Assembly (NCBI GenBank): GCA_013139905.1
Contig: WSZW01000008.1
Coordinates: forward strand, 1-33,438
Length of the DNA: 33,438 nt
Direction: 5' to 3'
Origin: an archaeon
GTDB taxonomy: Archaea > EX4484-52 > B79-G9
How positions within the stretch are numbered: the stretch's first letter is position 1; the number at the start of each line of letters is the position of its first letter. The notes beneath the pieces are model-generated. The model was not told where the DNA came from, ran no database searches, and worked only from the letters and a program-made list of their open reading frames with translations. The translations under genes and the position numbers were made by a program. Below, one piece after another: positions 2,544 through 22,777 of the stretch.

Positions 2544-2764
2544 AGAATCGTTTATATCTATCCACAACCATCTATCTATCTGCTGCCTTGTGCAAGTGTC
2601 AACCTCTAAAGTTGCACTTTTAAGTTGATTATTGGTAGTAGATCACCGGGGGTTTGTAAGTCCAATGAGCATAACCCAGACAATTTTTATATATTTTTAA
2701 TTCAATAAAGTATTTGTCCATATATTTTCATTTAGTTATAGGTTTTAAACTCTGTGGATGAAAT

Positions 2765-2780
2765 GTAAAGGCATATATAG
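2765..2780 (+). promoter_or_regulatory. BRE/TATA-like promoter for recombinase gene (leaderless geometry)
   Basis: GTAAAG-GCATATATAG is centred about 28 nt upstream of ATG 2804. There is no SD. Confidence 0.45.
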
Positions 2781-2803
2781 TATTTACACATACTCTGTGT
2801 CTT

Positions 2804-3409
2804 ATGGAATACTCACATAAATTGGAACTTTTTGCGTATTGTCGTGAATCTGTTGATCTGAAAACAGGAATAGAAATTCAAAAGGAATCTATTCAAAGAT
2901 ATTGTGATGCATATGAGATCACAATTCAAAAATGGTTCATTGATAATGATGCAAGTGCTTACAAGTATAGACCGAACTTTGAAAAAATGTGGAACTCACT
3001 TGATGGATGTGATGGGGTAATTGTAAAAGACCTTTCACGTTTTGGTAGGAGTGATGCAGATATGTTGGCTAAGTTCAATGAAATGAAAGATAGTGGTAAA
3101 CGGCTGATCCTTATCAAAGAAAACATTGATTCATCCACTCCGGAGACTGAATTTTTCTTAAAGATACTGGCATTGTTTGCGGACCGGGAAGCAACTACCA
3201 TAAGAGAGCGGTTGACTGCTGGAAGGGCATATGCAAAGATTCATGGGACAAAGTCAGGTAAACCCATGCACAGACCAGCAAAGAAAATCAACTGGGAGAA
3301 GTTCGATGAAATGAGGGGGAAAGGAATTTCAGTAATTAATATTGCCAAGATGATGGGGATAAGCCAAAGTAAATTATATCATGATATCAAGATAAGACCA
3401 AAGCAATAA
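2804..3409 (+). CDS. Small serine recombinase (resolvase/invertase family) with C-terminal HTH
   Basis: It aligns by eye along the whole length to gamma-delta resolvase. Matches include LFAYCRES (catalytic Ser), VIVKDLSRFGRSDADM, ILALFADREATTIRERLTAGRAYAK and the HTH ISVINIAKMMGISQSKLYHDI. Confidence 0.9.
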   Translation: MEYSHKLELFAYCRESVDLKTGIEIQKESIQRYCDAYEITIQKWFIDNDASAYKYRPNFEKMWNSLDGCDGVIVKDLSRFGRSDADMLAKFNEMKDSGKRLILIKENIDSSTPETEFFLKILALFADREATTIRERLTAGRAYAKIHGTKSGKPMHRPAKKINWEKFDEMRGKGISVINIAKMMGISQSKLYHDIKIRPKQ

Positions 3410-3451
3410 TTCAGAGGTGAATTAAAAGATACATGAAAATGAGGTGGAGAA

Positions 3452-3568
3452 ATGACGGCATATATATGTTACTGTGAAGAATGCCACAAGAAATTTATAA
3501 GTGGATTCTTAAACAATACAATGTGTTTGCCGTGTAGGCTTAAACAGAAGGATGAAAGAAATGAATGA
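3452..3568 (+). CDS. 38-aa zinc-ribbon mini-protein
   Basis: GAGGTGGAGA SD lies upstream. CYCEEC...CLPC cysteine pairs are present. The ORF ends 3 nt before R1. Confidence 0.5.
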   Translation: MTAYICYCEECHKKFISGFLNNTMCLPCRLKQKDERNE

Positions 3569-3571
3569 AAT

Positions 3572-3669
3572 TAGCTCAAGTCACCAGTGGCACTCAGACT
3601 CGCTCTATAGAGCGGCCTGGTGCTACTAAAACACCCGCATGAATGCGGGAGCATGGCTGAGATGATGCA
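3572..3669 (+). repeat. Structured cassette-boundary repeat R1 (5' arm A, partial; core alpha; 3' arm A)
   Basis: TAGCTCAAGTCAC arm. AGTGGCAC-CAG..CTG-GTGC-ACT stem enclosing CGCTC-TATA-GAGCG. CCCGCA-TGAA-TGCGGG hairpin. GCATGGCTGAGATGATGCA arm. Confidence 0.85.
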
Positions 3670-3713
3670 AAAATATAAGTATGACTAAATTAAATTGTGT
3701 AGTGTGATTAATC

Positions 3714-3914
3714 ATGACCAGAAAATACACAACAAAAAAAGACCGTGTGAGAAATATAAACGGAATTGTTTTTAAAGAGTCGCAGGGCAACCTCACAAAG
3801 AAAAAAGCAAGACAAATTGCAGCAACGTGGAATATGAAGGGACGAAAAGCAAGAGTGCTTCCTAGTAAATGGCCCATACAGCACACTTGGTCGGTGTTTA
3901 TAGAAAAGAAGTAA
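3714..3914 (+). CDS. Small basic protein (66 aa)
   Basis: GTGTGAT SD-like motif lies before the ATG. An A/T-rich TATA-like tract follows directly after R1. A T8 run follows the ORF. Confidence 0.6.
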   Translation: MTRKYTTKKDRVRNINGIVFKESQGNLTKKKARQIAATWNMKGRKARVLPSKWPIQHTWSVFIEKK

Positions 3915-3920
3915 TACAAT

Positions 3921-3938
3921 ATTTATTTTATTTTTTTT
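3921..3938 (+). terminator. Oligo-T tract (archaeal terminator-like)
   Basis: ATTTATTTTATTTTTTTT lies immediately after the stop of 3714..3914. Confidence 0.45.
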
Positions 3939-3942
3939 AGTG

Positions 3943-4033
3943 TTGCATTGGTGTTAGCTCAAGTCACGGGCGCCAGCGGCGGACCGCCCAACCCCTGCTT
4001 AGAAAGCAGGGGCATGACTAAGATTGACCCCTG
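3943..4033 (+). repeat. Repeat R2 (5' arm A; GC-rich core delta; 3' arm B)
   Basis: TTGCATTGGTGTTAGCTCAAGTCAC arm. GGGCG..CGCCC stem. CCCCTGCT-TAGAA-AGCAGGGG hairpin. Ends CATGACTAAGATTGACCCCTG. Confidence 0.85.
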
Positions 4034-4110
4034 CTTTTAATATTCTCTTTTTTATAATGGTTGTGTTGTAAACCGACAAGTTTAAGTAAGTTTAAGGCGT
4101 ATTATTAACT

Positions 4111-4245
4111 ATGAAGTGTAAGGCTTTGAAATCAAGTAATGAAGGACGGAGAGTTGAATGCCAAGCAGTTGATACAAACAAATGTAAAAAAACAAGAGGA
4201 CAATTTAATGTAACACAATATTGTTGGTGTATCAAGGAGGAATGA
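4111..4245 (+). CDS. 44-aa Cys-rich mini-protein
   Basis: ORF read by eye (MKCKALKSS...YCWCIKEE). Its stop overlaps the AGGAGG SD of the next gene. Confidence 0.4.
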   Translation: MKCKALKSSNEGRRVECQAVDTNKCKKTRGQFNVTQYCWCIKEE

Positions 4246-4248
4246 ATA

Positions 4249-4422
4249 ATGAAATGTAAAAAAATAGATTGTGATGAATGTGGTATAAACATCACTGATA
4301 GAGTCTACTATGCACAAGGATATACTTATAATTGTTGTTCTCATGGGTGTCTGGCACGGATAATGTTGAATGTTCAGGTATCGACAATTCAAGCAAGATT
4401 TGATTATTTGAATGAGGATTAA
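4249..4422 (+). CDS. 57-aa zinc-binding mini-protein (TRASH/MYM-like Cys spacing)
   Basis: AGGAGG SD lies upstream. CDEC-x19-CC-x3-C pattern (CDECGINITDRVYYAQGYTYNCCSHGC). Confidence 0.5.
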   Translation: MKCKKIDCDECGINITDRVYYAQGYTYNCCSHGCLARIMLNVQVSTIQARFDYLNED

Positions 4423-4425
4423 ACT

Positions 4426-4617
4426 ATGAAAAACTGGATTGATAACTTAGGGTTTGTACTGGTTTTTGTCGTGTATGCAATCGGTGCAGCATATACTGGT
4501 GTTATTTCTTATGGGATTGTGAGATTGGTATTTGGGGGGATGGGTATTTTATCTTTGATTTTTGCCATTCTTTTAATGAAAGATATGTTACTAAAAACCG
4601 AGGGGTCGGTATCTTAG
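4426..4617 (+). CDS. Small two-helix membrane protein (63 aa)
   Basis: GAGGATTAAACT lies before the ATG. Two hydrophobic helices are present. The C-terminal codons (EGSVS*) lie inside the R3 5' arm. Confidence 0.6.
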   Translation: MKNWIDNLGFVLVFVVYAIGAAYTGVISYGIVRLVFGGMGILSLIFAILLMKDMLLKTEGSVS

Positions 4618-4718
4618 AGTAGATGATGAGTCACTTGCACGTCCCTGACTCGTCCATAGGACGGCCAGGGCGAGCAAAAACACCCGGATGAATCCGGGAG
4701 CATGGCTAAGATGATGCA
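4600..4718 (+). repeat. Repeat R3 (5' arm B; core beta; 3' arm A)
   Basis: GAGGGGTCGGTATCTTAGAGTAGATGATGAGTCAC arm. TTGC-CG-CCCTG..CAGGG-CG-GCAA stem enclosing CGTCC-ATA-GGACG. CCCGGA-TGAA-TCCGGG hairpin. GCATGGCTAAGATGATGCA arm. Confidence 0.9.
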
Positions 4719-4860
4719 AAAAGTATTTAATACAATAAACACTGTTTTTATATGAGTGATTTTTTATGTCTAAAATTGTTCATGTAAAAGCACATACAAG
4801 AAAAGATCCAAAAACCGCAATTGCCTGGATAGTCGGATACGATATGAAGAAGGAATAATA

Positions 4861-5343
4861 ATGGATAAGAAAATAGCATTATTGGCAGTGTTTCTGCTTA
4901 TTGGCGTCGCATCAGCGGCGATATTGACAGAATATTTCAGAGATGAGCGAACCGTAGAAGTAACACCGTGGATGTCATTCGATGTAAATAATGACCCACG
5001 AGATACCACATATGGGCTCACTCAACTATATGATTATATCAATATCACTAGTCATAAGAAGTATTCTACGACATGTGAGATTGATACCGAGATATGGTTC
5101 AATGGGGAAGAACTAATCGATACAGAAGGCATCAAAGTCGATTATAGTGTAGAATCTGGAAGCGGTGCACTAATCACTCCATCTGATAATAATAACAATG
5201 GTCTTCCTGAAGCTGCAGTGTTTGGCACCCAGGACGCAGATGGAATATATACCATCAGACGGAATATCAACATCAATGAGGATCTGATTCCAGGAACATA
5301 CCGGATAGTCACTATATTAGTGCCGTATCAGGGAAATTCTTGA
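4861..5343 (+). CDS. Secreted/membrane-anchored protein (160 aa) with N-terminal signal-anchor
   Basis: GAAGGAATAATA lies before the ATG. N-terminus MDKKIALLAVFLLIGVASAAIL. No recognisable family. Confidence 0.7.
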   Translation: MDKKIALLAVFLLIGVASAAILTEYFRDERTVEVTPWMSFDVNNDPRDTTYGLTQLYDYINITSHKKYSTTCEIDTEIWFNGEELIDTEGIKVDYSVESGSGALITPSDNNNNGLPEAAVFGTQDADGIYTIRRNININEDLIPGTYRIVTILVPYQGNS

Positions 5344-5382
5344 GTAGGAAACATAATTATTCGCTATGGCTAAATTGTTACA

Positions 5383-5490
5383 AAGTGCTAGCTCTCAGGT
5401 CACTTGCACAAACCTCACACGTTCTGCGGAACGGCGATGTTGAGCAAAAACACCCATCTAAAGATGGGATGCATGACTAAAATGGTGGAT
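5383..5490 (+). repeat. Repeat R4 (5' arm A, degenerate; core gamma; 3' arm A, degenerate)
   Basis: AAGTGCTAGCTCTCAGGTCAC arm. TTGC..AACCTC..GTTC-TGCG-GAAC..GATGTT..GCAA stem. CCCATC-TAAA-GATGGG hairpin. GCATGACTAAAATGGTGGAT arm. Confidence 0.8.
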
Positions 5491-5649
5491 GAAATGATTA
5501 ATATAAAAGATGAAATGAAACATGTAAAAATTGAAGAAGGACAGATATGGCGTAAACAAGGACCATATGACTGGTTAAAGATTGAAAGAGTTGTTGATCC
5601 TAACTATCCTAGATATGTTGGTGGTGTGTTTTGCAACCATATTATGTAG
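5482..5649 (+). CDS. Small protein (about 55 aa); start uncertain (5473/5482/5494)
   Basis: The track ORF 5404..5649 begins inside R4. The in-frame ATGs at the R4 3' arm are more plausible starts. Confidence 0.5.
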   Translation: MVDEMINIKDEMKHVKIEEGQIWRKQGPYDWLKIERVVDPNYPRYVGGVFCNHIM

Positions 5650-5765
5650 ATATACTAGATGAAATATGTAGTTTCTGTGGTGGGCCGTTGATGACAACCA
5701 CGTTGAATGAAGACACATCCGAATGTATTAATTGTAAAGCCAAATTTGAAATAGAAGATTGCTAA
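5631..5765 (+). CDS. 44-aa zinc-ribbon mini-protein, TTG start
   Basis: CSFC...CINC pairs are present. The frame opens at 5613. TTG 5631 follows a GGTGGTG SD-like motif. It overlaps the preceding ORF by 19 nt. Confidence 0.4.
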   Translation: MQPYYVDILDEICSFCGGPLMTTTLNEDTSECINCKAKFEIEDC

Positions 5766-5767
5766 CG

Positions 5768-5888
5768 TTGCATGGGTGTTGGCTCAAGTCACGGGCGCCG
5801 GTCCGAATGCGAGAATCCCGCATGACAAGCGCCCAACTCCCCACAGCGCTTCGCTAACGTGGGGAGCATGACGACGGAGATGATGCAT
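5768..5888 (+). repeat. Repeat R5 (5' arm A variant; core epsilon; 3' arm A)
   Basis: TTGCATGGGTGTTGGCTCAAGTCAC arm. GGGCGC..GCGCCC stem enclosing ATGCG-AGAATCC-CGCAT. CTCCCCAC..GTGGGGAG hairpin. CATGACGACGGAGATGATGCAT arm. Confidence 0.85.
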
Positions 5889-6074
5889 ATGGCAAGAACA
5901 CAAAGAAGTAAAAAACGTCGGCAGCAAATAAGAGAATTTAGAAAGGAAAATAATATTACGAACTGCAAGCGCTGTGGTGAACCACTTGGAATGACTTCAC
6001 ATAATTTTCTATGTTCAAAGTGTTGGAATATTCAAGAAAACTTCCCTAAATTCGATAGGCCAAAAACAATATAA
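5889..6074 (+). CDS. Basic zinc-ribbon protein (about 61 aa); alternative in-frame ATGs at 5880/5883 inside R5
   Basis: MARTQRSKKRRQQ..., then CKRCGEPLGMTSHNFLCSKC. The track start 5859 lies inside the repeat. Confidence 0.6.
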   Translation: MARTQRSKKRRQQIREFRKENNITNCKRCGEPLGMTSHNFLCSKCWNIQENFPKFDRPKTI

Positions 6075-6082
6075 AAAGCGAG

Positions 6083-6379
6083 GTGAAAATATTGGATGAA
6101 ATATTGTTAATATCTGCATATAATGAAATTATAAAAAAGCAACCACTTTCACGAATGGGTTATGTTGATATGCATAACTTGTATTCAGAAATTAGAAATA
6201 AAAAAGGAATAACATTACAACTATTTAAAGAATGGATGGTTGAATTTTTCAATAAATATAATTTAAATGGATTTGAATTTGCAAGAGCAACGATAGCAAG
6301 AACAGAAGTTAAACGATATTCGTTTATTATTGACAATAATGTATATTATTATATGGTAAAAAGGATGCATAGGTGCTAG
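6083..6379 (+). CDS. Hypothetical protein (about 95-98 aa); TTG 6092 is the likelier start
   Basis: GTG 6083 is part of the GAGGTGA SD. The ORF terminates on the second TAG of the R6 5' arm (..MHRC*). Confidence 0.6.
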   Translation: MKILDEILLISAYNEIIKKQPLSRMGYVDMHNLYSEIRNKKGITLQLFKEWMVEFFNKYNLNGFEFARATIARTEVKRYSFIIDNNVYYYMVKRMHRC

Positions 6380-6474
6380 CTCAAGTCACTTGCACAGCGC
6401 TGACACGATCAGAGGTCGGCCAGCCTGAGCAAAAACTCCCGGATGAATCCGAGAGCATGGATAAGATGATGCAT
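6364..6474 (+). repeat. Repeat R6 (5' arm A; beta-like unique core; 3' arm A)
   Basis: GATGCATAGGTGCTAGCTCAAGTCAC arm. TTGC-CAG-GCTG..CAGC-CTG-GCAA stem with inner CGATC-AGA-GGTCG (U.G wobble). CTCCCGGA-TGAA-TCCGAGAG hairpin. GCATGGATAAGATGATGCAT arm. Confidence 0.9.
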
Positions 6475-6476
6475 AA

Positions 6477-6710
6477 ATGACACGAACAAGAAGAATATAC
6501 AATAATCCAAACTTAAAGAAAACCCCCCGGTCACATATAGACGAGGGTGAATATATTCCAAGAGGCATACCATTTACACGAAGAAGCTGGATATGTATGG
6601 GGATGTGTCGCGGATGTAGAGACCCAGAAAAGGATCCGCGAGCAATTCGTAATAAAATGAAATCGCAATTTAAATTTCAATTGATGTATGAAAAGGAAAT
6701 GATAGTATGA
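6477..6710 (+). CDS. Small basic protein (77 aa)
   Basis: The ATG is 3 nt after the end of R6, with no SD. The protein is Arg/Lys-rich and contains CMGMCRGC. Confidence 0.6.
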   Translation: MTRTRRIYNNPNLKKTPRSHIDEGEYIPRGIPFTRRSWICMGMCRGCRDPEKDPRAIRNKMKSQFKFQLMYEKEMIV

Positions 6711-6814
6711 ATAATTATGAATTGGCTGTGGCGGTAGATGTTGTACTGCTCATTATAGGTTTGGTGTTATTATACAAATCTATGAAAGATAGACAAAGTG
6801 GGCAAGCGGAGTGA
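6707..6814 (+). CDS. 35-aa single-TM mini-protein
   Basis: ATGA start/stop overlap with the upstream ORF. Hydrophobic core AVAVDVVLLIIGLVLLY. Confidence 0.4.
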   Translation: MNNYELAVAVDVVLLIIGLVLLYKSMKDRQSGQAE

Positions 6815-6821
6815 AAGTTAT

Positions 6822-7013
6822 ATGAAAGAATATATATTGAAACTTGAAAATTCATTGGGTAATGGTATAGTTGCCACGTTTGTAAAAGTAAAAGACTTGA
6901 TAAAACACACGGAAGACAATCCACCACAACGAAAATACCATTATTATATGGTAGTCAAAGAAACCACTGAGACAAGAGTTGATATGAAAGCGATAAAACA
7001 ATTTTATTCGTGA
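6822..7013 (+). CDS. Small protein (63 aa)
   Basis: GGAGTGA SD lies before ATG 6822; the track GTG 6798 is less likely. The stop TGA is the first triplet of the R7 5' arm. Confidence 0.55.
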   Translation: MKEYILKLENSLGNGIVATFVKVKDLIKHTEDNPPQRKYHYYMVVKETTETRVDMKAIKQFYS

Positions 7014-7126
7014 TGCATAGGTGCTAGCTTAAGTCACTTGCGCAAACCTTACTCATTCTGCGGAATGGCAAGGTTGAGCAAAAACTCACGGGCTCAAAGC
7101 CCGAAGCATGAACGGAGATGATGCAT
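7012..7126 (+). repeat. Repeat R7 (5' arm A; core gamma; 3' arm A)
   Basis: GATGCATAGGTGCTAGCTTAAGTCAC arm. TTGC..AACCTT..ATTC-TGCG-GAAT..AAGGTT..GCAA stem. CGGGCT-CAA-AGCCCG hairpin. GCATGAACGGAGATGATGCAT arm. Confidence 0.9.
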
Positions 7127-7128
7127 GA

Positions 7129-7332
7129 ATGAACAATGAAAAATACCACTGTGAAGATTGTGAACAATTTATAAACAAAGGGAAGATGCACGATGAAAAT
7201 GAATCAGAGTTTATGAAAGAAATACATCGTGAATGGGGTGAGTGTAGAGACAGAGCAGAAGTTCATGCCAAAGCACCCATATGTGAAACGTTTGTAAAAC
7301 GAAAGTCATTAAAGGGTTTGTTCTTTAGATAA
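7129..7332 (+). CDS. Small Cys-containing protein (67 aa)
   Basis: The ATG is 3 nt after R7. HCEDCEQF...ECRD...PIC. Confidence 0.6.
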   Translation: MNNEKYHCEDCEQFINKGKMHDENESEFMKEIHREWGECRDRAEVHAKAPICETFVKRKSLKGLFFR

Positions 7333-7341
7333 TGATGACAC

Positions 7342-7456
7342 GATGCATAGGTGCTAGCTCTCAGTCACTTGCAGCAACCTGACACGCTCTACGGAGCGGC
7401 CAGGTGCAGCAAAAACACCCATCTGAAGATGGGATGCATGAACGGAATGAACCCCT
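7342..7456 (+). repeat. Repeat R8 (5' arm A; beta-like unique core; 3' arm B-like)
   Basis: GATGCATAGGTGCTAGCTCTCAGTCAC arm. TTGC-GCA-CCTG..CAGG-TGC-GCAA stem enclosing CGCTC-TACG-GAGCG. CCCATC-TGAA-GATGGG hairpin. GCATGAACGGAATGAACCCCT arm. Confidence 0.85.
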
Positions 7457-7483
7457 TAAATAATAAATTGATAAGGTGATGAA

Positions 7484-8236
7484 ATGATTGATAATATGAC
7501 CCCAACGAAAGAACAGAAGAAAGAATTTATAGTAAAGGCACTTGGAATTGCAGGATTCACAGAAAAGGAAAACTACCAATGGCTGTATACCCAAGAACAC
7601 GGTATGAAAACTGTTGTAGTGAACTTAAACGAATGGCCCGTTAAGCCATATTTCAACGTTAGTGGTAAGAAGATTACAGAGGACGATGAACATGCAACGT
7701 TGAAGAAGGTAAGAACCATCATTAATGAGGCGGAGGGTGGCCAGATGCCTTCGAGGACAGAGGCTGACATTGTTGTGAACGTTGGTACGAAAGATACATC
7801 TGCTGATGATATAGATGCACCAGAGCATAAGAAGTATGCACAGGTCGAGACACCAGACCAGCCAGACGATGCGCCTACACAAACACATAAAACAATGACT
7901 CATGAAGAAGCAATGGCATTACCAAAACAACAGTTTATAGATAGATGCAAAGCATGGTTGGATGAATTCAATGACGGCAACCAACTAAACATAGATGGTC
8001 CCACAAAATGTCCTATTCATGCCTGGGTAATGCATAACCACCAAGCATGTTGCAAAGATTTAGTTGGTGGTATAACAAATTGTGAGATCTGCGGCCAGCC
8101 GATGTGCCCAGATTGTTCAAACCACGGAGTAACTCAACTCTCGAGAGTAACCGGGTACATTCAAGATGTCGCTGGATTTAATGCAGGAAAAAAGCAAGAG
8201 TTGGCCGACCGCAAAAAACACGATACATTTAGGTAA
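7484..8236 (+). CDS. 250-aa protein with C-terminal NrdD-type zinc-ribbon plus glycyl-radical domain; N-terminal 170 aa unknown
   Basis: GGTGA SD lies upstream. The C-terminus CEICGQPMCPDCSNHGVTQLSRVTGYIQDVAGFNAGKKQELADRKKH matches the E. coli NrdD tail RRVCGYLGSPDARPFNAGKQEEVKRRVKH. Confidence 0.75.
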   Translation: MIDNMTPTKEQKKEFIVKALGIAGFTEKENYQWLYTQEHGMKTVVVNLNEWPVKPYFNVSGKKITEDDEHATLKKVRTIINEAEGGQMPSRTEADIVVNVGTKDTSADDIDAPEHKKYAQVETPDQPDDAPTQTHKTMTHEEAMALPKQQFIDRCKAWLDEFNDGNQLNIDGPTKCPIHAWVMHNHQACCKDLVGGITNCEICGQPMCPDCSNHGVTQLSRVTGYIQDVAGFNAGKKQELADRKKHDTFR

Positions 8237-8250
8237 ATTTAGTTAATAAT

Positions 8251-8270
8251 GATGACTGGGATTGACCCCT
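8251..8270 (+). repeat. Orphan 3' arm B relic (no core)
   Basis: GATGACTGGGATTGACCCCT matches CATGACTAAGATTGACCCCT of R2/R10. It lies 7 nt upstream of the truncated 5' arm of R9. Confidence 0.55.
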
Positions 8271-8277
8271 TTATATG

Positions 8278-8379
8278 AGCCGTAGATTAGTCACTAGTGG
8301 CACTCAGACTCGCTCAGTAGAGCGGCCTGGTGCTACTAAAACACCCGCATGAATGCGGGAGCATGGATAAGATGATGCA
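8278..8379 (+). repeat. Repeat R9 (5' arm B, truncated; core alpha; 3' arm A)
   Basis: GAGCCGTAGATTAGTCAC arm. The core is nearly identical to R1 and R14. GCATGGATAAGATGATGCA arm. Confidence 0.9.
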
Positions 8380-8424
8380 AAAATATTTATTTAATAAAAA
8401 CAAACAATAAAGATGTGATATATC

Positions 8425-8622
8425 ATGCCAAAAGGAAGAAACACAATGGATTTTATGGTTTCATTTAGACAACCTAACATGCCAGGTAAAAGCAAATATA
8501 GAATTCAAGCATATTCAAAATCTGATGCATTGAAACGGGCAAAAGCAAGATGGCCGTCATCTGGAGAATTTGAAGTATTGTATGGAGTGAAAACGGTTCG
8601 TGGAAAATCTGTCAAATTTTAA
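8425..8622 (+). CDS. Small basic protein (65 aa)
   Basis: A TATA-like AAATATTTATTTAAT tract follows R9. GATGTGAT SD-like motif lies before the ATG. Confidence 0.6.
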   Translation: MPKGRNTMDFMVSFRQPNMPGKSKYRIQAYSKSDALKRAKARWPSSGEFEVLYGVKTVRGKSVKF

Positions 8623-8639
8623 TTTTTGTTCGCCGATGG

Positions 8640-8750
8640 TTGCATAGGAGTTGGCTCAAGTCAGGGGCGCCGGTCCGAATGCGAGAATCCCGCATGACAA
8701 GCGCCCAACTCTCCCTTAGAAAGGGAGAGCATGACTAAGATTGACCCCTG
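8640..8750 (+). repeat. Repeat R10 (5' arm A variant; core epsilon; 3' arm B)
   Basis: TTGCATAGGAGTTGGCTCAAGTCA arm. The GGGCGC..GCGCCC stem is identical to R5. CTCTCCCT-TAGAA-AGGGAGAG hairpin. CATGACTAAGATTGACCCCTG arm. Confidence 0.9.
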
Positions 8751-8760
8751 TCTTTTTTTA
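8751..8760 (+). terminator. Oligo-T tract after R10
   Basis: TCTTTTTTTA lies directly after the 3' arm B. Confidence 0.35.
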
Positions 8761-8809
8761 AATAGAAATCCTTAAATAGAATAACTTACTTACTTAGTAT
8801 GGTGATATT

Positions 8810-9016
8810 GTGAAAATACAAATTCAAGTATTAAACCGCATCGATGAATTGACTTGTGAAATGGAAGATACAAAACATTCCATGGATAATGGTGGGACAA
8901 ACTTATTTTTTTACATGGAACATAAAAGAAAGTTGTTAGAGCAAGCAACCGAAATAAAACATCTATGTTGGGTAATAGATGAAGAAGTACCAAAACATAT
9001 TTTAGCCTTGTTATGA
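8810..9016 (+). CDS. Small protein (68 aa), GTG start
   Basis: GGTGA SD lies 4 nt upstream of GTG 8810. Confidence 0.55.
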   Translation: MKIQIQVLNRIDELTCEMEDTKHSMDNGGTNLFFYMEHKRKLLEQATEIKHLCWVIDEEVPKHILALL

Positions 9017-9020
9017 GGTT

Positions 9021-9221
9021 ATGAAAATGAAAAATCTTAATGAGAAATTTACTGATGGGGAATATGCAGAATTGATGAGATTGAAGAACTTTATTGGTTT
9101 GCCTTGGCATGATCTATTATTGCAGATATTCAGAGAAGGTGAAAAGACCGTTATAAAAATGTTGGTTGCGGAGGGACACACCAAAGAAGAGATTGAAGAA
9201 ATGTTTAATGAGAGGAATTGA
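9021..9221 (+). CDS. Small protein (66 aa)
   Basis: TGAGGTT lies before the ATG. It is closely packed with its neighbours. Confidence 0.55.
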   Translation: MKMKNLNEKFTDGEYAELMRLKNFIGLPWHDLLLQIFREGEKTVIKMLVAEGHTKEEIEEMFNERN

Positions 9222-9224
9222 AAG

Positions 9225-9380
9225 ATGACAGTTGTAGTGTGTGATAAAAAGGACTGTGCTCACTATGAGAATGGCATCTGTGAAATGGAACAGATATACT
9301 TTGAATTGATAAATGATGTACTTACGTGTGTAGATGATACTGAGTTTATTGAGGGGTCTGATCACAGAGCCGATGAATAG
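9225..9380 (+). CDS. 51-aa Cys-containing mini-protein
   Basis: GAGAGG lies before the ATG. VCDKKDCAHYENGIC. The last 9 codons (EGSDHRADE*) lie inside the R11 5' arm B. Confidence 0.5.
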   Translation: MTVVVCDKKDCAHYENGICEMEQIYFELINDVLTCVDDTEFIEGSDHRADE

Positions 9381-9469
9381 TCACTTGCGCGTCCCTGACT
9401 CGTCCACAGGACGGCCAGGGCGAGCAAAAACACCCGGATGAATCCGGGAGCATGGATAAGAAGACACAT
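9351..9469 (+). repeat. Repeat R11 (5' arm B; core beta; 3' arm A, degenerate)
   Basis: GAGGGGTCTGATCACAGAGCCGATGAATAGTCAC arm. The core is almost identical to R3 and R15. GCATGGATAAGAAGACACAT arm. Confidence 0.9.
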
Positions 9470-9489
9470 GAAAAGAGGCGAATAAATAA

Positions 9490-9678
9490 ATGAATGTAAG
9501 AATGTGGATATACACACATGTGGTGTGGGTATGGATGGTTTTGGCATGTGTTGTTGCTTATAATTTAGATAACATACCGATGATTTATGAATATTTTGAG
9601 GTTTTCGCAGGATTATATATTGCAGGATGTTTAATACTTTTCAGGGTTCAATCAAAAGACAACAATGTGGTGAAATAA
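9490..9678 (+). CDS. Small two-helix membrane protein (62 aa)
   Basis: AGAGGCGA lies before the ATG. Two hydrophobic helices are present. Confidence 0.55.
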   Translation: MNVRMWIYTHVVWVWMVLACVVAYNLDNIPMIYEYFEVFAGLYIAGCLILFRVQSKDNNVVK

Positions 9679-9852
9679 ATGGTAACTAAATTAGGTAAAT
9701 TTGAACTTAATACAAAGAAATGGAGAATAGAAAATGGATTAACAGGATCAGAGTGGAAAATATTTGTTGAGAATAGAGGCAATATTTTAGTAGTGGTTGT
9801 TGTTCTTGTTTCGATTGCATTTTTCATTCTTGGTTATACGTGTCCATTTTAG
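9679..9852 (+). CDS. 57-aa protein with C-terminal TM helix
   Basis: ORF read by eye (MVTKLGKFELNTKKW...ILVVVVVLVSIAFFILGY). The ATG is adjacent to the upstream stop. Confidence 0.45.
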   Translation: MVTKLGKFELNTKKWRIENGLTGSEWKIFVENRGNILVVVVVLVSIAFFILGYTCPF

Positions 9853-9874
9853 TGTGTGTGTAGATGATACTATG

Positions 9875-9943
9875 GATGCATAGGTGTTGGCTAGAAGTCA
9901 ACCGCACCCGGCTACAAGCAGGATGCATGCGGGAATGATGCAT
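9875..9943 (+). repeat. Repeat R12 (short form: 5' arm A; single composite hairpin; 3' arm A)
   Basis: GATGCATAGGTGTTGGCTAGAAGTCAA arm. CCGCA[CCGGCT-ACA-AGCAGG]ATGCATGCGG hairpin. GAATGATGCAT arm. Confidence 0.7.
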
Positions 9944-10210
9944 AAAAATGAGGTGAATAAATTGAAAAGTAAAGAAGAGATTGTTTTAACTGAAATAAAA
10001 GGGGCAAATGATATTGACAGTCCAATTTGGTTTACAAAAATAGTTGAAAATCTAGATGGTGTGTTGTCTAGAAGTGAAGTTGGAATAGCAATTGACAGAT
10101 TAAGTGATTTGGGTTATATAAAAGGAAGATATGGTGAAGTTAGAAAAGGATGGAGTGGATATAAATATCATATTACAGACATTGGTGAATCGTTATTTAA
10201 GATGCGCTAA
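9938..10210 (+). CDS. Winged-helix-like small DNA-binding protein; start uncertain (ATG 9935/9938 in R12, or TTG 9962 after GAGGTGA)
   Basis: The track ORF starts at 9884 inside R12. LSRSEVGIAIDRLSDLGYIKGRYGEV..YKYHITDIGESL resembles a wHTH wing. Confidence 0.5.
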   Translation: MHKNEVNKLKSKEEIVLTEIKGANDIDSPIWFTKIVENLDGVLSRSEVGIAIDRLSDLGYIKGRYGEVRKGWSGYKYHITDIGESLFKMR

Positions 10211-10211
10211 C

Positions 10212-10302
10212 GATGCATAGGTGCTAGCTATAAGTCAAGGGCGCCAGCGGCGGACCGCCCAACTCCCTGCTAGAAGCAGGGAGCATGACTAAGTTTGACC
10301 CA
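10212..10302 (+). repeat. Repeat R13 (5' arm A; core delta; 3' arm B)
   Basis: GATGCATAGGTGCTAGCTATAAGTCAA arm. The GGGCG..CGCCC stem is identical to R2. CTCCCTGC-TAGAA-GCAGGGAG hairpin. CATGACTAAGTTTGACCCA arm. Confidence 0.9.
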
Positions 10303-10331
10303 TTGAATGAATAAATAAAGAGAGTGAATAT

Positions 10332-10517
10332 ATGACAAGCCCAGAACAAATACTCGCTATCGGAATTGAACGATTGGCAATGATGCGCGAAATGGCGAAA
10401 ATTATCATAAATGCAGAAACCAAAGAAGATATCCTTTTTATTTTAAAAACAATGGAAGAACAACTGGATGAAGGAATTACTGAAATTGATGTGTTGTGCA
10501 AACAAATGGGAGAATAA
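10332..10517 (+). CDS. Small acidic helical protein (61 aa)
   Basis: GAGAGTGA SD lies before the ATG. Confidence 0.55.
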   Translation: MTSPEQILAIGIERLAMMREMAKIIINAETKEDILFILKTMEEQLDEGITEIDVLCKQMGE

Positions 10518-10522
10518 TAAAT

Positions 10523-10837
10523 ATGCAAGTCGGAACAAAGGAGATCCCGGACGAATTGTTTTATAGATATCTGCGATTAATCAAAGCGACTGAACGAAGC
10601 AGTGAACGATACAACTATGATTTTGATAAGGAACGAGAGGCCGTTCATGATGAAATTATACATCATGTCAATCTCTTACCACACATGAAAGAATATAGAG
10701 AATTTCAAAGCCATCTACAAGATTTGTGTGAAGATATGTTGCCATCAAGATTTCCGCCATCGCAGATACCTATAACAATAAATCCCCCAAATAGTGGTTT
10801 GATGTCTAATAGAGGGGTCGGATCACAGAGCCGATAG
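10523..10837 (+). CDS. Hypothetical protein (about 104 aa)
   Basis: ATG 10523 follows the upstream stop; the track start 10496 overlaps the previous ORF. The C-terminal codons (RGVGSQSR*) lie inside the R14 5' arm B. Confidence 0.55.
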   Translation: MQVGTKEIPDELFYRYLRLIKATERSSERYNYDFDKEREAVHDEIIHHVNLLPHMKEYREFQSHLQDLCEDMLPSRFPPSQIPITINPPNSGLMSNRGVGSQSR

Positions 10838-10931
10838 ATAGTCACTAGTGGCCATCAGACTCGCTCTATAGAGCGGCCTGGTGCTACTAAAACTCCCGCA
10901 TGAATGCGGGAGCATGACTAAAATGATGCAT
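10812..10931 (+). repeat. Repeat R14 (5' arm B; core alpha; 3' arm A)
   Basis: GAGGGGTCGGATCACAGAGCCGATAGATAGTCAC arm. Core as in R1 and R9. GCATGACTAAAATGATGCAT arm. Confidence 0.9.
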
Positions 10932-10984
10932 GAAAAGGAAGTGGGATATATGAAAGTAATTTATGTTGAAAGGTGAGATAGTAA

Positions 10985-11095
10985 ATGATTAAAAGTACAG
11001 ATCCATATAAAAATACTGGAGCAATACATACTGATCCAGAGAATGATAAGTATTTATATGAATTACAAAAAAATAAAAGTAAAAGAGGTGAATAA
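10985..11095 (+). CDS. 36-aa mini-protein
   Basis: AAGGTGAGA SD lies before the ATG. ORF read by eye (MIKSTDPYKNTG...). Confidence 0.4.
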   Translation: MIKSTDPYKNTGAIHTDPENDKYLYELQKNKSKRGE

Positions 11096-11099
11096 ATAA

Positions 11100-11282
11100 A
11101 TGGAAAACATAATCAAAAAGGTAAGAGTATTTGAGTCAAAATCAAATTACCACAACGGTGAAGATATCGGCTCTGGGTTTGCAGTGATTGTAGATCCACT
11201 ACTAACAACCGGACACCAGAAATGGCAAGTTGCACAGGCGATAAGGTATGCATTAGAGAATTTGGTATTAGAGGATGAATAA
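11100..11282 (+). CDS. Small protein (60 aa)
   Basis: AGAGGTGA SD lies before the ATG. Confidence 0.55.
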   Translation: MENIIKKVRVFESKSNYHNGEDIGSGFAVIVDPLLTTGHQKWQVAQAIRYALENLVLEDE

Positions 11283-11309
11283 TGACAAAGCAAAGGAGAT
11301 GAAAAGAAT

Positions 11310-11426
11310 ATGTTCTGTCGTCATGAATGGATAAAAGTAGGTGGTCCACAAAGAGCTGGACCCGGACAATTCAGTCAACATTTTAGATGTGTTAAATGTA
11401 ACAAAACAAAAAGACTGGTTGATTAA
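11310..11426 (+). CDS. 38-aa zinc-finger-like mini-protein
   Basis: AAGGAGATGA SD lies upstream. FCRHEW...RCVKCN. Confidence 0.45.
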   Translation: MFCRHEWIKVGGPQRAGPGQFSQHFRCVKCNKTKRLVD

Positions 11427-11428
11427 CA

Positions 11429-11539
11429 ATGCATAGGTGCTAGCACGAAGTCACTTGCGCGTCCCTGACTCGTCCACAGGACGGCCAGGGCGAGCAAAAA
11501 CTCCCGGCTGAAGCAGGGAGCATGGTTAAACTGATGCAT
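11429..11539 (+). repeat. Repeat R15 (5' arm A; core beta; hybrid P3; 3' arm A)
   Basis: ATGCATAGGTGCTAGCACGAAGTCAC arm. Beta stem identical to R11. CTCCCGGC-TGAA-GCAGGGAG hairpin. GCATGGTTAAACTGATGCAT arm. Confidence 0.9.
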
Positions 11540-11714
11540 AAAAGCAGTTGCACGAAACAAAGCACTGTTTGCAAATGCTATATGGTCCGTATCAAATCCT
11601 TTGTTGGTGGGATATAACTATTATAATGGAATGATTGAACAATCTATCATGTTCGCTGTTTTTACATTGGTGGCAGGGTATGGGGTATATAATTTAAAAA
11701 TTAAAGCGGAGTGA
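11535..11714 (+). pseudogene. N-terminally truncated paralogue of the 15084..15320 membrane protein, abutting R15
   Basis: The frame is open from 11535 with no ATG/GTG/TTG until mid-ORF. NAIWSVSNPLLVGYNYYNGMIEQSIMFAVFTLVAGYGVYNLKIK aligns to NVLWLISNPAMSVYNYNINEFEMAGMFGVYSMIAVYGVYNLKLK. Confidence 0.5.
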
Positions 11715-11719
11715 AAGCA

Positions 11720-11869
11720 ATGACAGATACTATGGACTTACTAACAATCAATACTTGTGATTTGAATGAATTAAAAGTTGATTTGGACGGAGATTTTTAT
11801 ATGTCCATATCAGATCGTGTAGGATTTGTGACCGACTTTATTGAACTGGTAGATAAATATAGAATATGA
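11720..11869 (+). CDS. 49-aa acidic mini-protein
   Basis: GGAGTGA SD lies upstream, the same context as at 6806. The stop TGA is the first triplet of R16. Confidence 0.45.
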   Translation: MTDTMDLLTINTCDLNELKVDLDGDFYMSISDRVGFVTDFIELVDKYRI

Positions 11870-11924
11870 TGCATAGGTGCTACAACGAAGTCAACTACCA
11901 TGCCTTAAAAGGCATGGCATCATC
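11868..11924 (+). repeat. Repeat R16 (terminal short form: 5' arm A then terminator-like hairpin)
   Basis: GATGCATAGGTGCTACAACGAAGTCAAC, then CCATGCC-TTAAAA-GGCATGG and GCATCATC, which is the inverted GATGATGC. Confidence 0.65.
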
Positions 11925-11938
11925 TAATTTCTTTTTTT
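11898..11938 (+). terminator. Hairpin plus T7 run closing the cassette array
   Basis: CCATGCC/GGCATGG stem (11898-11917) is followed by TTTCTTTTTTT. Confidence 0.5.
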
Positions 11939-11982
11939 CCGGTGGTTTTTGGTTGTGGTGTGGGGTGTGGTTTTTAAGTGGA

Positions 11983-11996
11983 AAGTTATATATAGT
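11983..11996 (+). promoter_or_regulatory. BRE/TATA-like promoter of the replication module
   Basis: GAAAG-TTATATATAG lies about 29 nt upstream of ATG 12020. Confidence 0.45.
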
Positions 11997-12019
11997 TTAA
12001 CATCTATTTAACTTATATT

Positions 12020-12163
12020 ATGTTATTGGAAACTAAAATCCATAAAATCGGCGGATCACATATGTTGGTGATACCAGGCCCAATGGTTGAATATTTTAAA
12101 ATCAAACCAGGAAAATGTAAAATCGAAGACACAGACGAAAACGAAGCACGGCTGGTTTTTTGA
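12020..12163 (+). CDS. AbrB/SpoVT-like (swapped-hairpin) small DNA-binding protein, 47 aa
   Basis: ORF read by eye: MLLETKIHKIGGSHMLVIPGPMVEYFKIKPGKCKIE.... The KIGGS..V.IP signature is typical of AbrB/MazE-fold regulators. Confidence 0.6.
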   Translation: MLLETKIHKIGGSHMLVIPGPMVEYFKIKPGKCKIEDTDENEARLVF

Positions 12164-12265
12164 GAGTGGTGAAGTTGATGTTTGTAAAAGGAACACCCCG
12201 CTGGCAGGCAGGGCATAAAAGAGATTCGATAGAACCAGTACTTAGATTGTTTTTATTTTATTTAA

Positions 12266-14137
12266 ATGTTTTGTGGTGATATCACAGTGACTAAATCTAT
12301 GAATCCTAAAGTATTATGCCGTTTTGCTTGTGAAAGATATGAAAATGATTGTATATATAATGCAATAGACACATCCACAATATTTGATAATAAAAACAAT
12401 GGTATTAATTGTGATAATATAATTTTAAATAAACATTATGGTATAGATATTCCAAATTCATATAAAATATTGAATGATAAAAATGAACTTGGAACGTTTC
12501 AATATATTAAAAAAATAAACATTAAAACAAATGAAGTTGATGAGGACTATAATATAATTTGTTATCAACCAACGTGGTTAAACAATTCTTTTGTTGACCA
12601 CCTTACAAAACTTCATTATATGGAATTGTGTTACATGTATCGTGGTAGTGTGATAATTCAAATTGTGAGTCAAAAAGATATACTCACAACAACAGGATTA
12701 AAAATACTTACTGCTGCTGGATTGAATGTTCCAGAAAGTAAAATGAGAAATCTTGCCGACTATTATGCTACATATATATCAGAGTCGTCCACACTTGAAG
12801 AGATGGAAATATTTTCTCGGTTCGGTTGGTCTATGGATGTGATGAAATTCACCATTGGTGATAATTCTGTGTCAGAAGATGATATACAAAAAACATATCT
12901 AACACAGGACATCGCAACAGAAACGATTGATGCGCTTTCGCCGGTTGGAAGTTCTGCGGGGTGGATGGATGTTACTAAAGGTTTATTACAACATGATAAT
13001 GTTAGATTTACATGTTATGCGGTGGTAGCGTCACTTTTGTTAAAGGTGTTGGGTGGTGCATCATTCGTTGTTGAATTGGTAGGTGATACCAGCACTGGTA
13101 AAACAATTGCTGCACAGTTGGCTATGTCGATATTTGGGAATCCACAAAAACTTAAATTAGCAACCAGTGCCACAAAGGTATTTATCGAGAGAACTTGCAC
13201 CACATGTTGTGACTTACCTATATTTTTAGATGAAACAAGTATGATGCAATCAGAGATATTGACTGAAATAAGTTATATGGTAGCTAATGAAAGGAGCCGA
13301 GGGCGTGGTAAAAAGGAAGGTGGAGTAGAAGCCGTGTCTACTTGGAAAACTGTATTACTCACAACCGGTGAAGTTCCTTTATTGAGTTCTGGTAGCTTAG
13401 GTGGTCAGGATGTAAGAACTGTTTCATTGTACGGTGGAATAGGTGTATACGATCCTGAAAATGTTGACTTGTTTAGAGAGAAAATGGAAGAAAATTGTGG
13501 AACCATTGCACCACTGCTTATTCAGAAAATATTGAAATATAAAGATGATTTGGAAGGTTTTTATATAAATATAAGAGATGATTTAAAAGAATATAGTAAA
13601 GCAGATAAAACCGGAGTAATAGGTAGAGTGGTTGATACGTATGCTTTAATTTCATTGGCAGGATTTGTATTTGAATCTGTTATAGAAGATTTAGGGTATG
13701 ATACTAAAGATGCTTTTGAATTAGTAGAAAATAAGTTCAATGATAAAATTACACAATCTGATGGTAGCCTTCCGGAAAGGGCATTTTTAATAATAACTGA
13801 TTGGATTATAGAAAATAAAAAGAATTTTTGTAATGATAAAGAAGGATATGCAGGTGATAGATATGACCTTTATGGTAATATGTCTATGGAATTTCCGGAC
13901 AACGAAGCACCATATGATTATGTGGATATTATACCTCAGCGGTTCTATGAAGTTATGGATAATAAACTTAATCACCCAGGAATTTCAAAACGAATTTTAA
14001 GAGATTGGCAGGGAAGTGGTAAAATAATTGTTGATAAAAACGGTAAAAACACCATCTTGGCAACAATTAAAAGCGGAACCAAACAGACACGAGTTATAAG
14101 GGTGAAACTTCCTTTGCCTATTGGTGGGGTAAATTAA
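12266..14137 (+). CDS. Replication protein: unknown N-terminal domain plus superfamily-3 helicase (DUF927/D5-like)
   Basis: Walker A VGDTSTGKT, Walker B LPIFLDETS, motif C VLLTTGE, and SIFGNP as in DUF927 helicases. ATG 12299 is the alternative start if the transcript is leaderless from the TTTTATTTTATTTAAA tract. Confidence 0.8.
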   Translation: MFCGDITVTKSMNPKVLCRFACERYENDCIYNAIDTSTIFDNKNNGINCDNIILNKHYGIDIPNSYKILNDKNELGTFQYIKKINIKTNEVDEDYNIICYQPTWLNNSFVDHLTKLHYMELCYMYRGSVIIQIVSQKDILTTTGLKILTAAGLNVPESKMRNLADYYATYISESSTLEEMEIFSRFGWSMDVMKFTIGDNSVSEDDIQKTYLTQDIATETIDALSPVGSSAGWMDVTKGLLQHDNVRFTCYAVVASLLLKVLGGASFVVELVGDTSTGKTIAAQLAMSIFGNPQKLKLATSATKVFIERTCTTCCDLPIFLDETSMMQSEILTEISYMVANERSRGRGKKEGGVEAVSTWKTVLLTTGEVPLLSSGSLGGQDVRTVSLYGGIGVYDPENVDLFREKMEENCGTIAPLLIQKILKYKDDLEGFYINIRDDLKEYSKADKTGVIGRVVDTYALISLAGFVFESVIEDLGYDTKDAFELVENKFNDKITQSDGSLPERAFLIITDWIIENKKNFCNDKEGYAGDRYDLYGNMSMEFPDNEAPYDYVDIIPQRFYEVMDNKLNHPGISKRILRDWQGSGKIIVDKNGKNTILATIKSGTKQTRVIRVKLPLPIGGVN

Positions 14138-22403: not shown

Positions 22404-22412
22404 GGATTAAAA

Positions 22413-22763
22413 ATGTCAGTTTACATACCAATTGGATTATTTATCTGTCTTGTATCTGTGATGGTTATCCTTGTGTTTGCAGGGATAAAGACCACTGGAA
22501 TTCTATCAATATTTTCATCTCTTTTGAGCATAATGTTGGCCTTTATAAATTCAAAGATTGTAGTTAATGGTACTTTAGTTCAGAATATCGGTGGCATTGA
22601 TGGATATGACAATATTATACAAGGTGTCACACCTATAGAAATACCTGCGCTATCATATATTTTTATGTTTATAGGTTTATTCATGGTTGTGGTGTTGGCT
22701 GTCCAAGTATTAAGAGAAATCAAATTTAGAGAATCTCAAGATACAATCGAAATTGATTTATAG
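22413..22763 (+). CDS. Stand-alone copy of the giant protein's C-terminal 3-helix membrane-anchor module (116 aa)
   Basis: TGAGGATT SD lies upstream. About two-thirds of residues are identical to the last 116 aa of 17484..22403 (..NGTLVQNIGGI..IQGVTPIEIPALSYI..VQVLREIKFRESQDTIEIDL). Confidence 0.8.
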   Translation: MSVYIPIGLFICLVSVMVILVFAGIKTTGILSIFSSLLSIMLAFINSKIVVNGTLVQNIGGIDGYDNIIQGVTPIEIPALSYIFMFIGLFMVVVLAVQVLREIKFRESQDTIEIDL

Positions 22764-22764
22764 A

Positions 22765-22777
22765 AAATGATATATAC
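22765..22777 (+). promoter_or_regulatory. TATA-like promoter (leaderless geometry)
   Basis: AAAATGATATATAC lies about 26 nt upstream of ATG 22799. Confidence 0.4.

Follow-up and report, generated by a model that had tools for sequence, protein, structure and literature searches.

The stretch of DNA analysed here (the window: positions 1 to 33,438 of contig WSZW01000008.1, assembly GCA_013139905.1) represents a mobile element or virus with nearly all of its genes on the + strand. Between positions 3570 and 11938 (8.4 kb) it carries 16 copies of a structured repeat, R1 to R16, all on the + strand and each placed between two small + strand open reading frames (ORFs). The copy R6, a segment of 111 bases (6364-6474) to which an earlier note made from the sequence alone had drawn attention, is one member of this modular repeat family, which forms every gene-to-gene junction of an 8.4-kb ORFan array. 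The pattern made of the 5' arm and AGTCA occurs nine times, against 0.07 expected by chance. A covariance model was built from the copies, full-length copies being counted at E<=1e-19, and it recovers 25 of them across seven loci (the window and six others; related loci carry L numbers here), all on the gene strand; the opposite strand yields none, and neither do nine related loci that have no array. More than one kind of backbone carries the element, primase-type elements as well as larger viral contigs.

From 5' to 3', the element (70-120 nucleotides, nt) is composed of a 5' arm, a near-invariant AGTCA, an optional hairpin P2, an A-rich linker, a universal hairpin P3, an invariant GCATG and a 3' end. 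The arm has the form ATGCAT-AGGTGCTAGCT or the variant AGGGGTC..., and the 3' end the form ..ATGATGCAT or the variants ..GACCCCT and ..GCACATG; AGGGGTC and GACCCCT are referred to as type 2. A scan for the type 2 arm pattern returned only chance matches in coding sequence (L193, L194). P2 is present in the long copies, is represented by a different, GGGCGCC-based hairpin in R2, R5, R10 and R13, and is missing from short copies (R12 and others), with the distance from AGTCA to GCATG ranging from 28 to 79 nt. P3 lies directly 5' of GCATG in 41 of 42 copies, with a mean energy of -9.1 kcal/mol compared with -3.2 kcal/mol in shuffles. The 5' arms overlap the ends of the upstream ORFs, in different frames, and provide their stop codons; the 3' ends lie 2-45 nt ahead of the next start codon, many of them merely 2-15 nt. 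The first copies of arrays are devoid of a 5' arm, and the arrays of the window, L166 and L010 end alike, in a truncated copy consisting of a 5' arm, AGTCA or AGTAA, a hairpin and a T-run. The coordinates of all window copies, and of the parts of R6, are collected in Table 1.

Table 1. Repeat copies, parts of R6 and neighbouring landmark genes, in window coordinates.
Feature	Position	Strand	Remarks
Serine recombinase (Resolvase, PF00239)	2804-3409	+	just upstream of array; candidate partner
R1	3570-3669	+	long type, first copy; 5' arm cut down to TAGCTCA
R2	3942-4032	+	GGGCGCC-type core; type 2 3' end: CTAAGAT 4018-4024, GACCCCT 4026-4032
R3	4600-4718	+	long type; type 2 5' arm AGGGGTC 4601-4607, ATCTTAG 4611-4617, complementary to R2 3' end
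R4	5386-5491	+	long type; GGTCA replaces AGTCA; arm and 3' end degenerate
R5	5767-5888	+	GGGCGCC-type core with inner hairpin; 3' end GGAGATGATGCAT
R6, 5' arm GATGCATAGGTGCTAGCT	6364-6381	+	holds stop TAG (6377-6379) of upstream ORF 6083-6379
R6, ATGCAT of arm	6365-6370	+	matches ATGCAT 5883-5888, 3' end of R5
R6, near-invariant AGTCA, then C	6384-6389	+	proposed module joint; 5' strand of unsupported P1
R6, hairpin P2	6390-6432	+	stem segments TTGC/GCAA, CAG/CTG, GCTG/CAGC
R6, P2 internal loop	ACA 6403-6405, GC 6419-6420	+	conserved
R6, P2 tip CGATC-AGA-GGTCG	6406-6418	+	
R6, A-rich linker AAACT	6433-6437	+	after GCAA; on minus strand, T-run following P3 hairpin
R6, hairpin P3 CCCGGA-TGAA-TCCGAG	6438-6453	+	C.A mismatch 6439/6452
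R6, invariant GCATG and 3' end GATAAGATGATGCAT	6455-6474	+	next ORF starts at 6477
R6, ATGCAT of 3' end	6469-6474	+	matches ATGCAT 7013-7018 in R7 5' arm
R7	7012-7126	+	long type
R8	7342-7457	+	long type; 3' end GAACCCCTT
R9	8251-8379	+	long type; preceded by gene-less relic
R10	8639-8749	+	GGGCGCC-type core, inner hairpin; type 2 3' end GACCCCT 8743-8749, then T-run and AT-rich boxes
R11	9351-9470	+	long type; type 2 5' arm AGGGGTC 9352-9358, complementary to R10 3' end
R12	9875-9943	+	short type without P2: arm, AGTCAA, P3, GCATG, ATGATGCAT
R13	10212-10303	+	GGGCGCC-type core; type 2 3' end GACCCAT 10297-10303
R14	10812-10931	+	long type; type 2 5' arm AGGGGTC 10813-10819
R15	11428-11539	+	long type
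R16	11868-11938	+	terminal truncated copy: 5' arm, AGTCA 11889-11893, hairpin CCATGCC/GGCATGG 11898-11917, T-run 11928-11938; array end
DUF927/Cch-type primase-helicase	12266-14137		landmark beyond array

The earlier note had proposed that all long copies share a multi-stem fold maintained by compensatory changes, and for the hairpins P2 and P3 this proposal is upheld. A first alignment (MAFFT) of 19 long copies, drawn from the window and a further three loci, gives the same picture as an alignment of 25 copies fitted to the covariance model, in which standard pairs occupy 91.5% of cells, compared with 73% in shuffled alignments and 28-42% when the partners are slid by 1-3 columns. Both sides have changed in 17 of 27 pairs, although the copies make up about four P2 subfamilies common to several genomes and the independent events are fewer than the cell counts suggest. 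In P2 (11 base pairs, bp, plus a 5-bp tip) such double changes affect 8 of the 11 stem pairs and 4 of the 5 tip pairs, and in P3 (6 bp) they affect 5 of 6 pairs, in keeping with the description of a P3 stem whose sequence varies while its pairing is kept. The asymmetric internal loop at the P2 tip (A-C-N versus G-C), the A-rich linker and the GCAUG after P3, all pointed out before, are likewise invariant or nearly so.

The proposed closing helix P1 (AGUCA with UGACU or UGGCU) fares differently: AGUCA is essentially invariant, its 3' strand (UGRCU) drifts uncompensated, not one pair has changed on both sides, and of the two outer pairs one is broken in 9 and the other in 13 of the 25 copies. 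RNAalifold, which had been suggested as a check on the aligned copies, by itself predicts the P2 and P3 hairpins but not P1. Because P1 is without double-sided changes and its outer pairs are often broken, the closed, hammerhead-like three-way junction is, judging from these alignments, not established. The argument that U.G pairs occur on the + strand only, from which the sense strand had been taken to be the one that folds, has to be given up as well, as P2 and P3 together hold 14 G.U and 8 A.C cells (a difference that is not significant) and the P3 of R6 itself contains a C.A mismatch whose counterpart on the minus strand would be a G.U pair. In R6 the minus strand is the more stable of the two (-40.1 versus -34.5 kcal/mol), and the copy alone is thermodynamically unexceptional (z-score -1.67); the support for the fold is comparative and does not derive from the stability of R6.

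A new self-cleaving ribozyme with hammerhead-like topology, cutting polycistronic RNA at each junction, had been one of the functions envisaged. About 20 invariant unpaired nucleotides surround conserved helices, the copies are intercistronic and co-oriented, and the three helices drawn in the earlier note have junction strands of hammerhead-like length; these strands, however, read C, AAAC(A/U) and (A)GCA, and the CUGANGA ... GAAA core of the hammerhead, with its UH cleavage site, is absent, the lack of the core sequences having been recognised at the time. The helix that would have to close such a ribozyme, P1, shows no covariation and is often only 3 bp long, and the short copies dispense with P2, its conserved loop and the A-rich linker. 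Rfam 15 covariance models (twister, twister-sister, pistol, hatchet, hepatitis delta virus-like, hairpin, transfer RNA (tRNA) and others) gave no match at the gathering score, and nothing in Rfam, the hammerhead included, reached even E<=10 over window positions 3300-12300 on both strands. With nothing in the data specific for self-cleavage, a ribozyme is highly unlikely and the least probable of the readings considered here. The other options raised at that time, a protein-recognised processing RNA and an attC-like site, gain in weight because of the complementary cassette ends, the linker breakpoints and the ORFan cassette content described below.

Several further candidates were weighed, the structural ones by inspection, and rejected. 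A tRNA-like fold was among them, ARAGORN finding no tRNA in the window. In a K-turn or C/D-box reading of GAUGAUGC and CUGA, the CUGA is unconserved and the box order wrong; a readthrough element of the pyrrolysine insertion sequence (PYLIS) kind after the in-arm UAG is contradicted by frames that reach further stops at once; a local hairpin of AGGUGCU with AGUCAC is disrupted by the R10 variant without compensation; and the 3' end fits a Shine-Dalgarno sequence in some copies only. On the minus strand of eight long copies (e.g., 6456-6435, 4698-4683 and 9448-9433), P3 in reverse complement, with TGTTTTTGC after it, scores as intrinsic-terminator-like, and long copies could in this way block antisense transcription.

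The ends of successive copies are matched. Both the 3' end and the 5' arm occur in several types, and the type of one 3' end predicts that of the next 5' arm: ATGCAT is paired with ATGCAT, GACCCCT with AGGGGTC (R2-R3, R10-R11 and R13-R14 in the window, and in L141 and L195) and GCACATG with CATGTGC (type 3; L166 and contig C3619), and in L181 there are two variants with compensation on both sides, AACCCAT with ATGGGTT and ATGCAC with GTGCAT. The mean duplex energy of a 3' end with the following arm is -9.7 kcal/mol, compared with -8.2 kcal/mol for the arm of its own copy and -7.5 kcal/mol for the arm after next, and the preference for the following arm is significant by within-array permutation (p=0.00035). 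In a type table of 42 cassettes, the units between successive junctions, AGGGGTC comes after GACCCCT in 5/6 cases versus 3/36 otherwise (Fisher p=3.7e-4), and type 3 ends are associated as well (Fisher p=0.015). Genes in cassettes sharing an end type are unrelated to each other, and a two-gene cassette with homologues in L195 and L190 (window 10332-10837, between R13 and R14) carries type 1 ends in L190, whereas the window and L195 versions have those of type 2. Because same-type cassettes are unrelated and a homologous cassette switches both of its end types, the matching is a property of the ends and does not reflect descent shared with the gene. Within the end pairing, a site of bulge-helix-bulge form for the archaeal splicing endonuclease was considered and discarded, since two 3-nt bulges 4 bp apart would be expected and co-folding yields plain helices or an internal loop of 1x3.

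A selfish, non-autonomous mobile repeat that spreads through intergenic spaces without serving its elements, in the manner of miniature inverted-repeat transposable elements (MITEs) or repetitive extragenic palindromic (REP) sequences, would account for a multicopy, intergenic distribution, for sequence subfamilies common to several genomes and for the restriction of the repeat to a subset of related elements (L189, L163, L187 and L197-L202 are without it). Such repeats are recognised by terminal inverted repeats of their own or a REP hairpin, by insertion in either orientation and by chromosomal spread, whereas the present copies are oriented strictly with the genes, have neither terminal inverted repeats of their own nor target duplications, and show a complementarity that spans the genes and not the repeat. 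No transposase partner was found, and a 15-mer scan of the genome contigs, itself incomplete and poorly specific, returned only chance matches and no convincing chromosomal copy. A selfish origin is very unlikely.

The copies can also be broken down into modules. L141/L149 and L160 are 100% identical up to AAGTCA and have unrelated cores beyond it; L195 contains a half-element beginning at AAAAAC and a further relic beginning at GCATG; in C3619, arm-AGTCAA runs straight into ATGATGCAT-AGGTGCTAGCT, core and gene both being absent; and the gene-less relic at R9 (window 8251-8288) is a fusion of a type 2 3' end, ATGACTGGGATTGACCCCT, with the remainder of a type 2 arm, GAGCCGTAGATT. The half-elements and gene-less fusions break at AAAAC, GCATG and ATGCAT, and the same P2 module is found with differing P3 modules and ends. 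It is at the invariant linkers AGTCA, AAAAC, GCATG and ATGCAT that reassortment of modules takes place.

The genes carried between the junctions are almost never common to two loci and are mostly unrelated ORFans, and none of ten window array ORFs tested has a Pfam match. Many of them (e.g., window 3452-3568) encode tiny proteins of 39-70 amino acids with paired CxxC motifs. A larger cassette protein of 250 amino acids (window 7484-8236, + strand) has a C-terminus that matches the end of the anaerobic ribonucleotide reductase NrdD, including a CxxC...CxxC zinc site and the glycyl-radical motif RVTGY, and looks, from its sequence, like a stand-alone "spare-part" glycyl-radical domain; its N-terminal half has a homologue in L181 (5554-5970), and a database look-up of the protein returned no record. 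The cassette gene at window 10496-10837 has homologues directly 3' of a TnpB-like gene (Cas12f1-like_TNB) in the repeat-less loci L199-L202 (e.g., L199 3799-5573).

Among window ORFs of at least 150 amino acids, the serine recombinase (PF00239) is the only recombinase found. The resolvase adjoins the arrays in the window and in L166 and lies 4.6 kb away in L160; in L189, where it is 92% identical, there is no array between resolvase and primase. The resolvase segment itself (window 2726-3390 compared with L189 2613-3277, 87.5% nucleotide identity) is inverted relative to the conserved flanking genes, and L189 has an additional GIY-YIG ORF near it. The boundaries of the inverted segment show no obvious inverted repeats and no likeness to the element arms.

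We tentatively favour the reading that the repeat is a cassette junction, or recombination joint, akin in its working to integron attC sites or to the promoter-early stem-loops (PeSLs) of phages. The matched ends, the breakpoints at linkers, the unrelated genes, the array-less L189, the uniform array ends and the in-arm stop codons all fit such a role, and the invariant AGTCA with its drifting partner fits a shared joint better than a helix. The block-like unit would then be the cassette (core, 3' end, gene or genes, 5' arm, AGTCA) and not the repeat, and cassettes and hairpin modules would be gained, lost and swapped by crossovers within the short invariant linkers. Because the cassette ends are complementary, looping out or circularising a cassette would bring its arm and 3' end together, and their pairing, together with that of AGTCA and TGACT, would gather P2 and P3 into a single compact fold, a site comparable to an integron attC in what it does and to a T4 PeSL in its genomic role. 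The element would be co-transcribed with the genes, and its hairpins would probably also insulate neighbouring cistrons. The hairpins, the complementary ends, the breakpoints between modules and the unrelated genes of the cassettes are observed, whereas recombination as the selected function, the enzyme, the circular intermediate and the strand or molecule that folds are inferred.

A number of points weigh against a recombination joint. The complementarity and the hairpins are equally well explained by a role at the RNA level; the complementarity is mostly only 6-7 bp, and 14 of the 42 cassettes are unmatched. The spread of breakpoints over several linkers is more in line with homologous or microhomology recombination than with a single site-specific crossover, and the breakpoint between L141 and L160 comes from metagenome contigs, L160 ending 86 nt past it. 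No recombinase is tied to the arrays, as the near-identical resolvase of L189 occurs without an array and the array of the 18.5-kb contig C3619 is unaccompanied by any resolvase homologue, and no tyrosine recombinase or HUH enzyme was found in a scan that included all window ORFs of at least 150 amino acids. Serine recombinases, for their part, act on duplex DNA and would need no hairpins.

Nearly as likely as a recombination joint, and possible in the same guarded sense, is an intercistronic signal for punctuation, processing or stability of RNA, the array being transcribed as one or few long RNAs. A host or element endonuclease would cut the single-stranded A-rich linker or beside AGUCA, P2 and P3 would become the 3' and 5' hairpins of neighbouring cistrons and stabilise or insulate them after cleavage, and each cistron would be looped out by RNA pairing of its cassette ends, much as ribosomal RNAs (rRNAs) are by the processing stems around them. 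Such a signal would explain why the 25 full-length copies and all others lie on the coding strand between cistrons, why hairpins are kept by compensatory change, why the complementarity spans each cistron and why the array closes with a hairpin and T-run and contains few T-runs internally; the invariant unpaired nucleotides suggest a trans-acting factor, and the presence on different backbones suggests that it is a host factor. Yet the wobble asymmetry described above gives the transcript strand no advantage, the 3' half of the pairing between ends falls within the preceding ORF (in type 2 arms, 8-20 nt short of its stop codon) and would be melted there by ribosomes, and a helix of 6-7 bp closing a loop of 300-850 nt is weak. 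The T-runs and AT-rich boxes after type 2 3' ends (R2, R10, L181) may separate transcription units, and RNA punctuation alone leaves the linker-exact breakpoints and the array-less close relative unexplained.

A bolder version of the recombination joint, which we regard as doubtful, is an undescribed integron-like capture platform of archaeal viruses and plasmids. Its ORFan cassettes would each bring along a split site of several stems (complementary ends, AGTCA/TGACT, P2 and P3), restored on circularisation of the cassette and recombined at the invariant AGTCA by an enzyme other than IntI, such as the adjacent serine recombinase or a host factor; in a variant of it, the pairing would act in RNA, each cistron being looped out and excised. 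Still less probable, and in our view unlikely, is a PeSL-like regulatory cassette (terminator/promoter or insulator) whose recombination is a passive by-product of repetition. The terminator-like minus strand of the eight long copies, the T-runs and TATA-like boxes after some type 2 3' ends and the reassortment at several linkers, as expected from homologous recombination, are all compatible with such a cassette, for which the reports on T4-like phages (PMC2839356, PMC4122927), halovirus HF2 (PMC8707807) and HGTV-1 (PMC3950731) offer precedent. The conserved element, however, holds no AT-rich TATA-like box, most copies are without a + strand T-run behind either hairpin, the 2-15 nt to the next start in many copies leave no space for an archaeal promoter, and passive recombination would not explain the compensatory changes in the pairing of the cassette ends.

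Outside the array, the window encodes a 1658-amino-acid adhesin-like protein and, among its proteins, a weak match to the archaeal MCM winged-helix. The relatives of the primase are labelled "archaeon" and neighbouring genes contain archaeal GINS domains (Gins51_C), which makes an archaeal host very probable; in the phage collection the primase has only distant relatives, and single-protein searches of viral contigs with resolvase and primase found no relatives. Just 5' of the primase, an ORF of 47 amino acids (window 12020-12163, + strand) is conserved with 87% identity in L008 and 61% in L169/L170, a conservation between elements that is not seen for the array genes. Several pairs of 100-145-nt direct repeats (72-75% identity, 360-714 nt apart) at window 22137-24130 span the end of the 1658-amino-acid ORF and the small ORFs behind it and are probably tandemly duplicated genes or domains, and an ORF of 702 amino acids contains a 36-nt tandem repeat in 1.9 copies (window 30529-30598).

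ORFan-rich accessory regions are the fastest-evolving parts of the viruses and plasmids of uncultivated archaea, and the exchange of genes in them is largely unexplained. A conserved, structured junction with matched cassette ends provides a concrete and testable handle on this exchange, and the covariance model represents a signature of sequence and structure by which such arrays can be found in metagenomes. If the attC-like reading is true, cassette capture would have been invented a second time, independently, in this element; if the RNA reading is true, archaea would have a new intercistronic processing signal.

Among known intercistronic RNA structures are the RNase III sites of T7 early transcripts, the processing stems of rRNA operons and the REP hairpins in operons. 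The element shares with processing stems the conserved sense-strand hairpins between cistrons and complementary flanks that could loop out a long segment, but differs from them in that no bulge-helix-bulge geometry can be built here and no long duplex is formed; to our knowledge, Archaea are mostly without RNase III. The likeness to integrons, which have been reported in Archaea (PMC9668308), lies in co-oriented, mostly promoterless, unrelated small genes that are each bounded by a structured repeat, in the conservation of a fold and a few nucleotides while sequence and length vary, in a site that may be viewed as divided at a short invariant motif and that a circular cassette would restore to its closed, folded form, and in the recombinase gene adjoining the array in two loci. 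Unlike attC, which forms one long imperfect hairpin with extrahelical bases, the element forms two separate hairpins; its conserved ends are AGTCA(C/A) and GCATG(A/G), with ATGCAT-type arms, in place of RYYYAAC/GTTRRRY core sites (R'', R'), there is no AAC...GTT pair, its breakpoints fall at several linkers, and the neighbouring enzyme in the window is an inconsistently linked serine recombinase and not an IntI-type tyrosine recombinase. Because the core sites are absent and no tyrosine recombinase was found, the element is not a canonical attC.

The closest parallel in genomic role is provided by the PeSLs. PeSLs are short conserved intergenic stem-loop repeats that flank non-essential ORFans in hyperplastic regions, and through exchange between copies the genes in between are shuffled, deleted or circularised (PMC2839356, PMC4122927, PMC3950731, PMC8707807), PeSL-flanked ORFans giving mini-circles in T4-type phages (PMC2839356, PMC4122927); a PeSL-like motif is described in the archaeal virus HGTV-1 (PMC3950731), and the intergenic repeats of halovirus HF2 carry promoters (PMC8707807). 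Measured against the definition in PMC2839356, the present copies likewise flank ORFans in hypervariable regions and have exchanged sequence with one another, but a strong promoter is not apparent, with no TATA-like box and bacterial-type promoter matches at background (48 versus 39 +/- 6). At 70-120 nt the element is also longer than PeSLs, has two covarying hairpins and invariant linkers, and in most copies appears to be without a sense-strand terminator, a T-run behind the hairpin occurring on that strand only in the terminal copy and at some type 2 ends, with the terminator-like shape on the minus strand. Complementary, covarying cassette ends do not appear among the PeSL features given in the available parts of those reports, and the matched cassette ends, together with the split-site logic, are what is new in the arrays described here.

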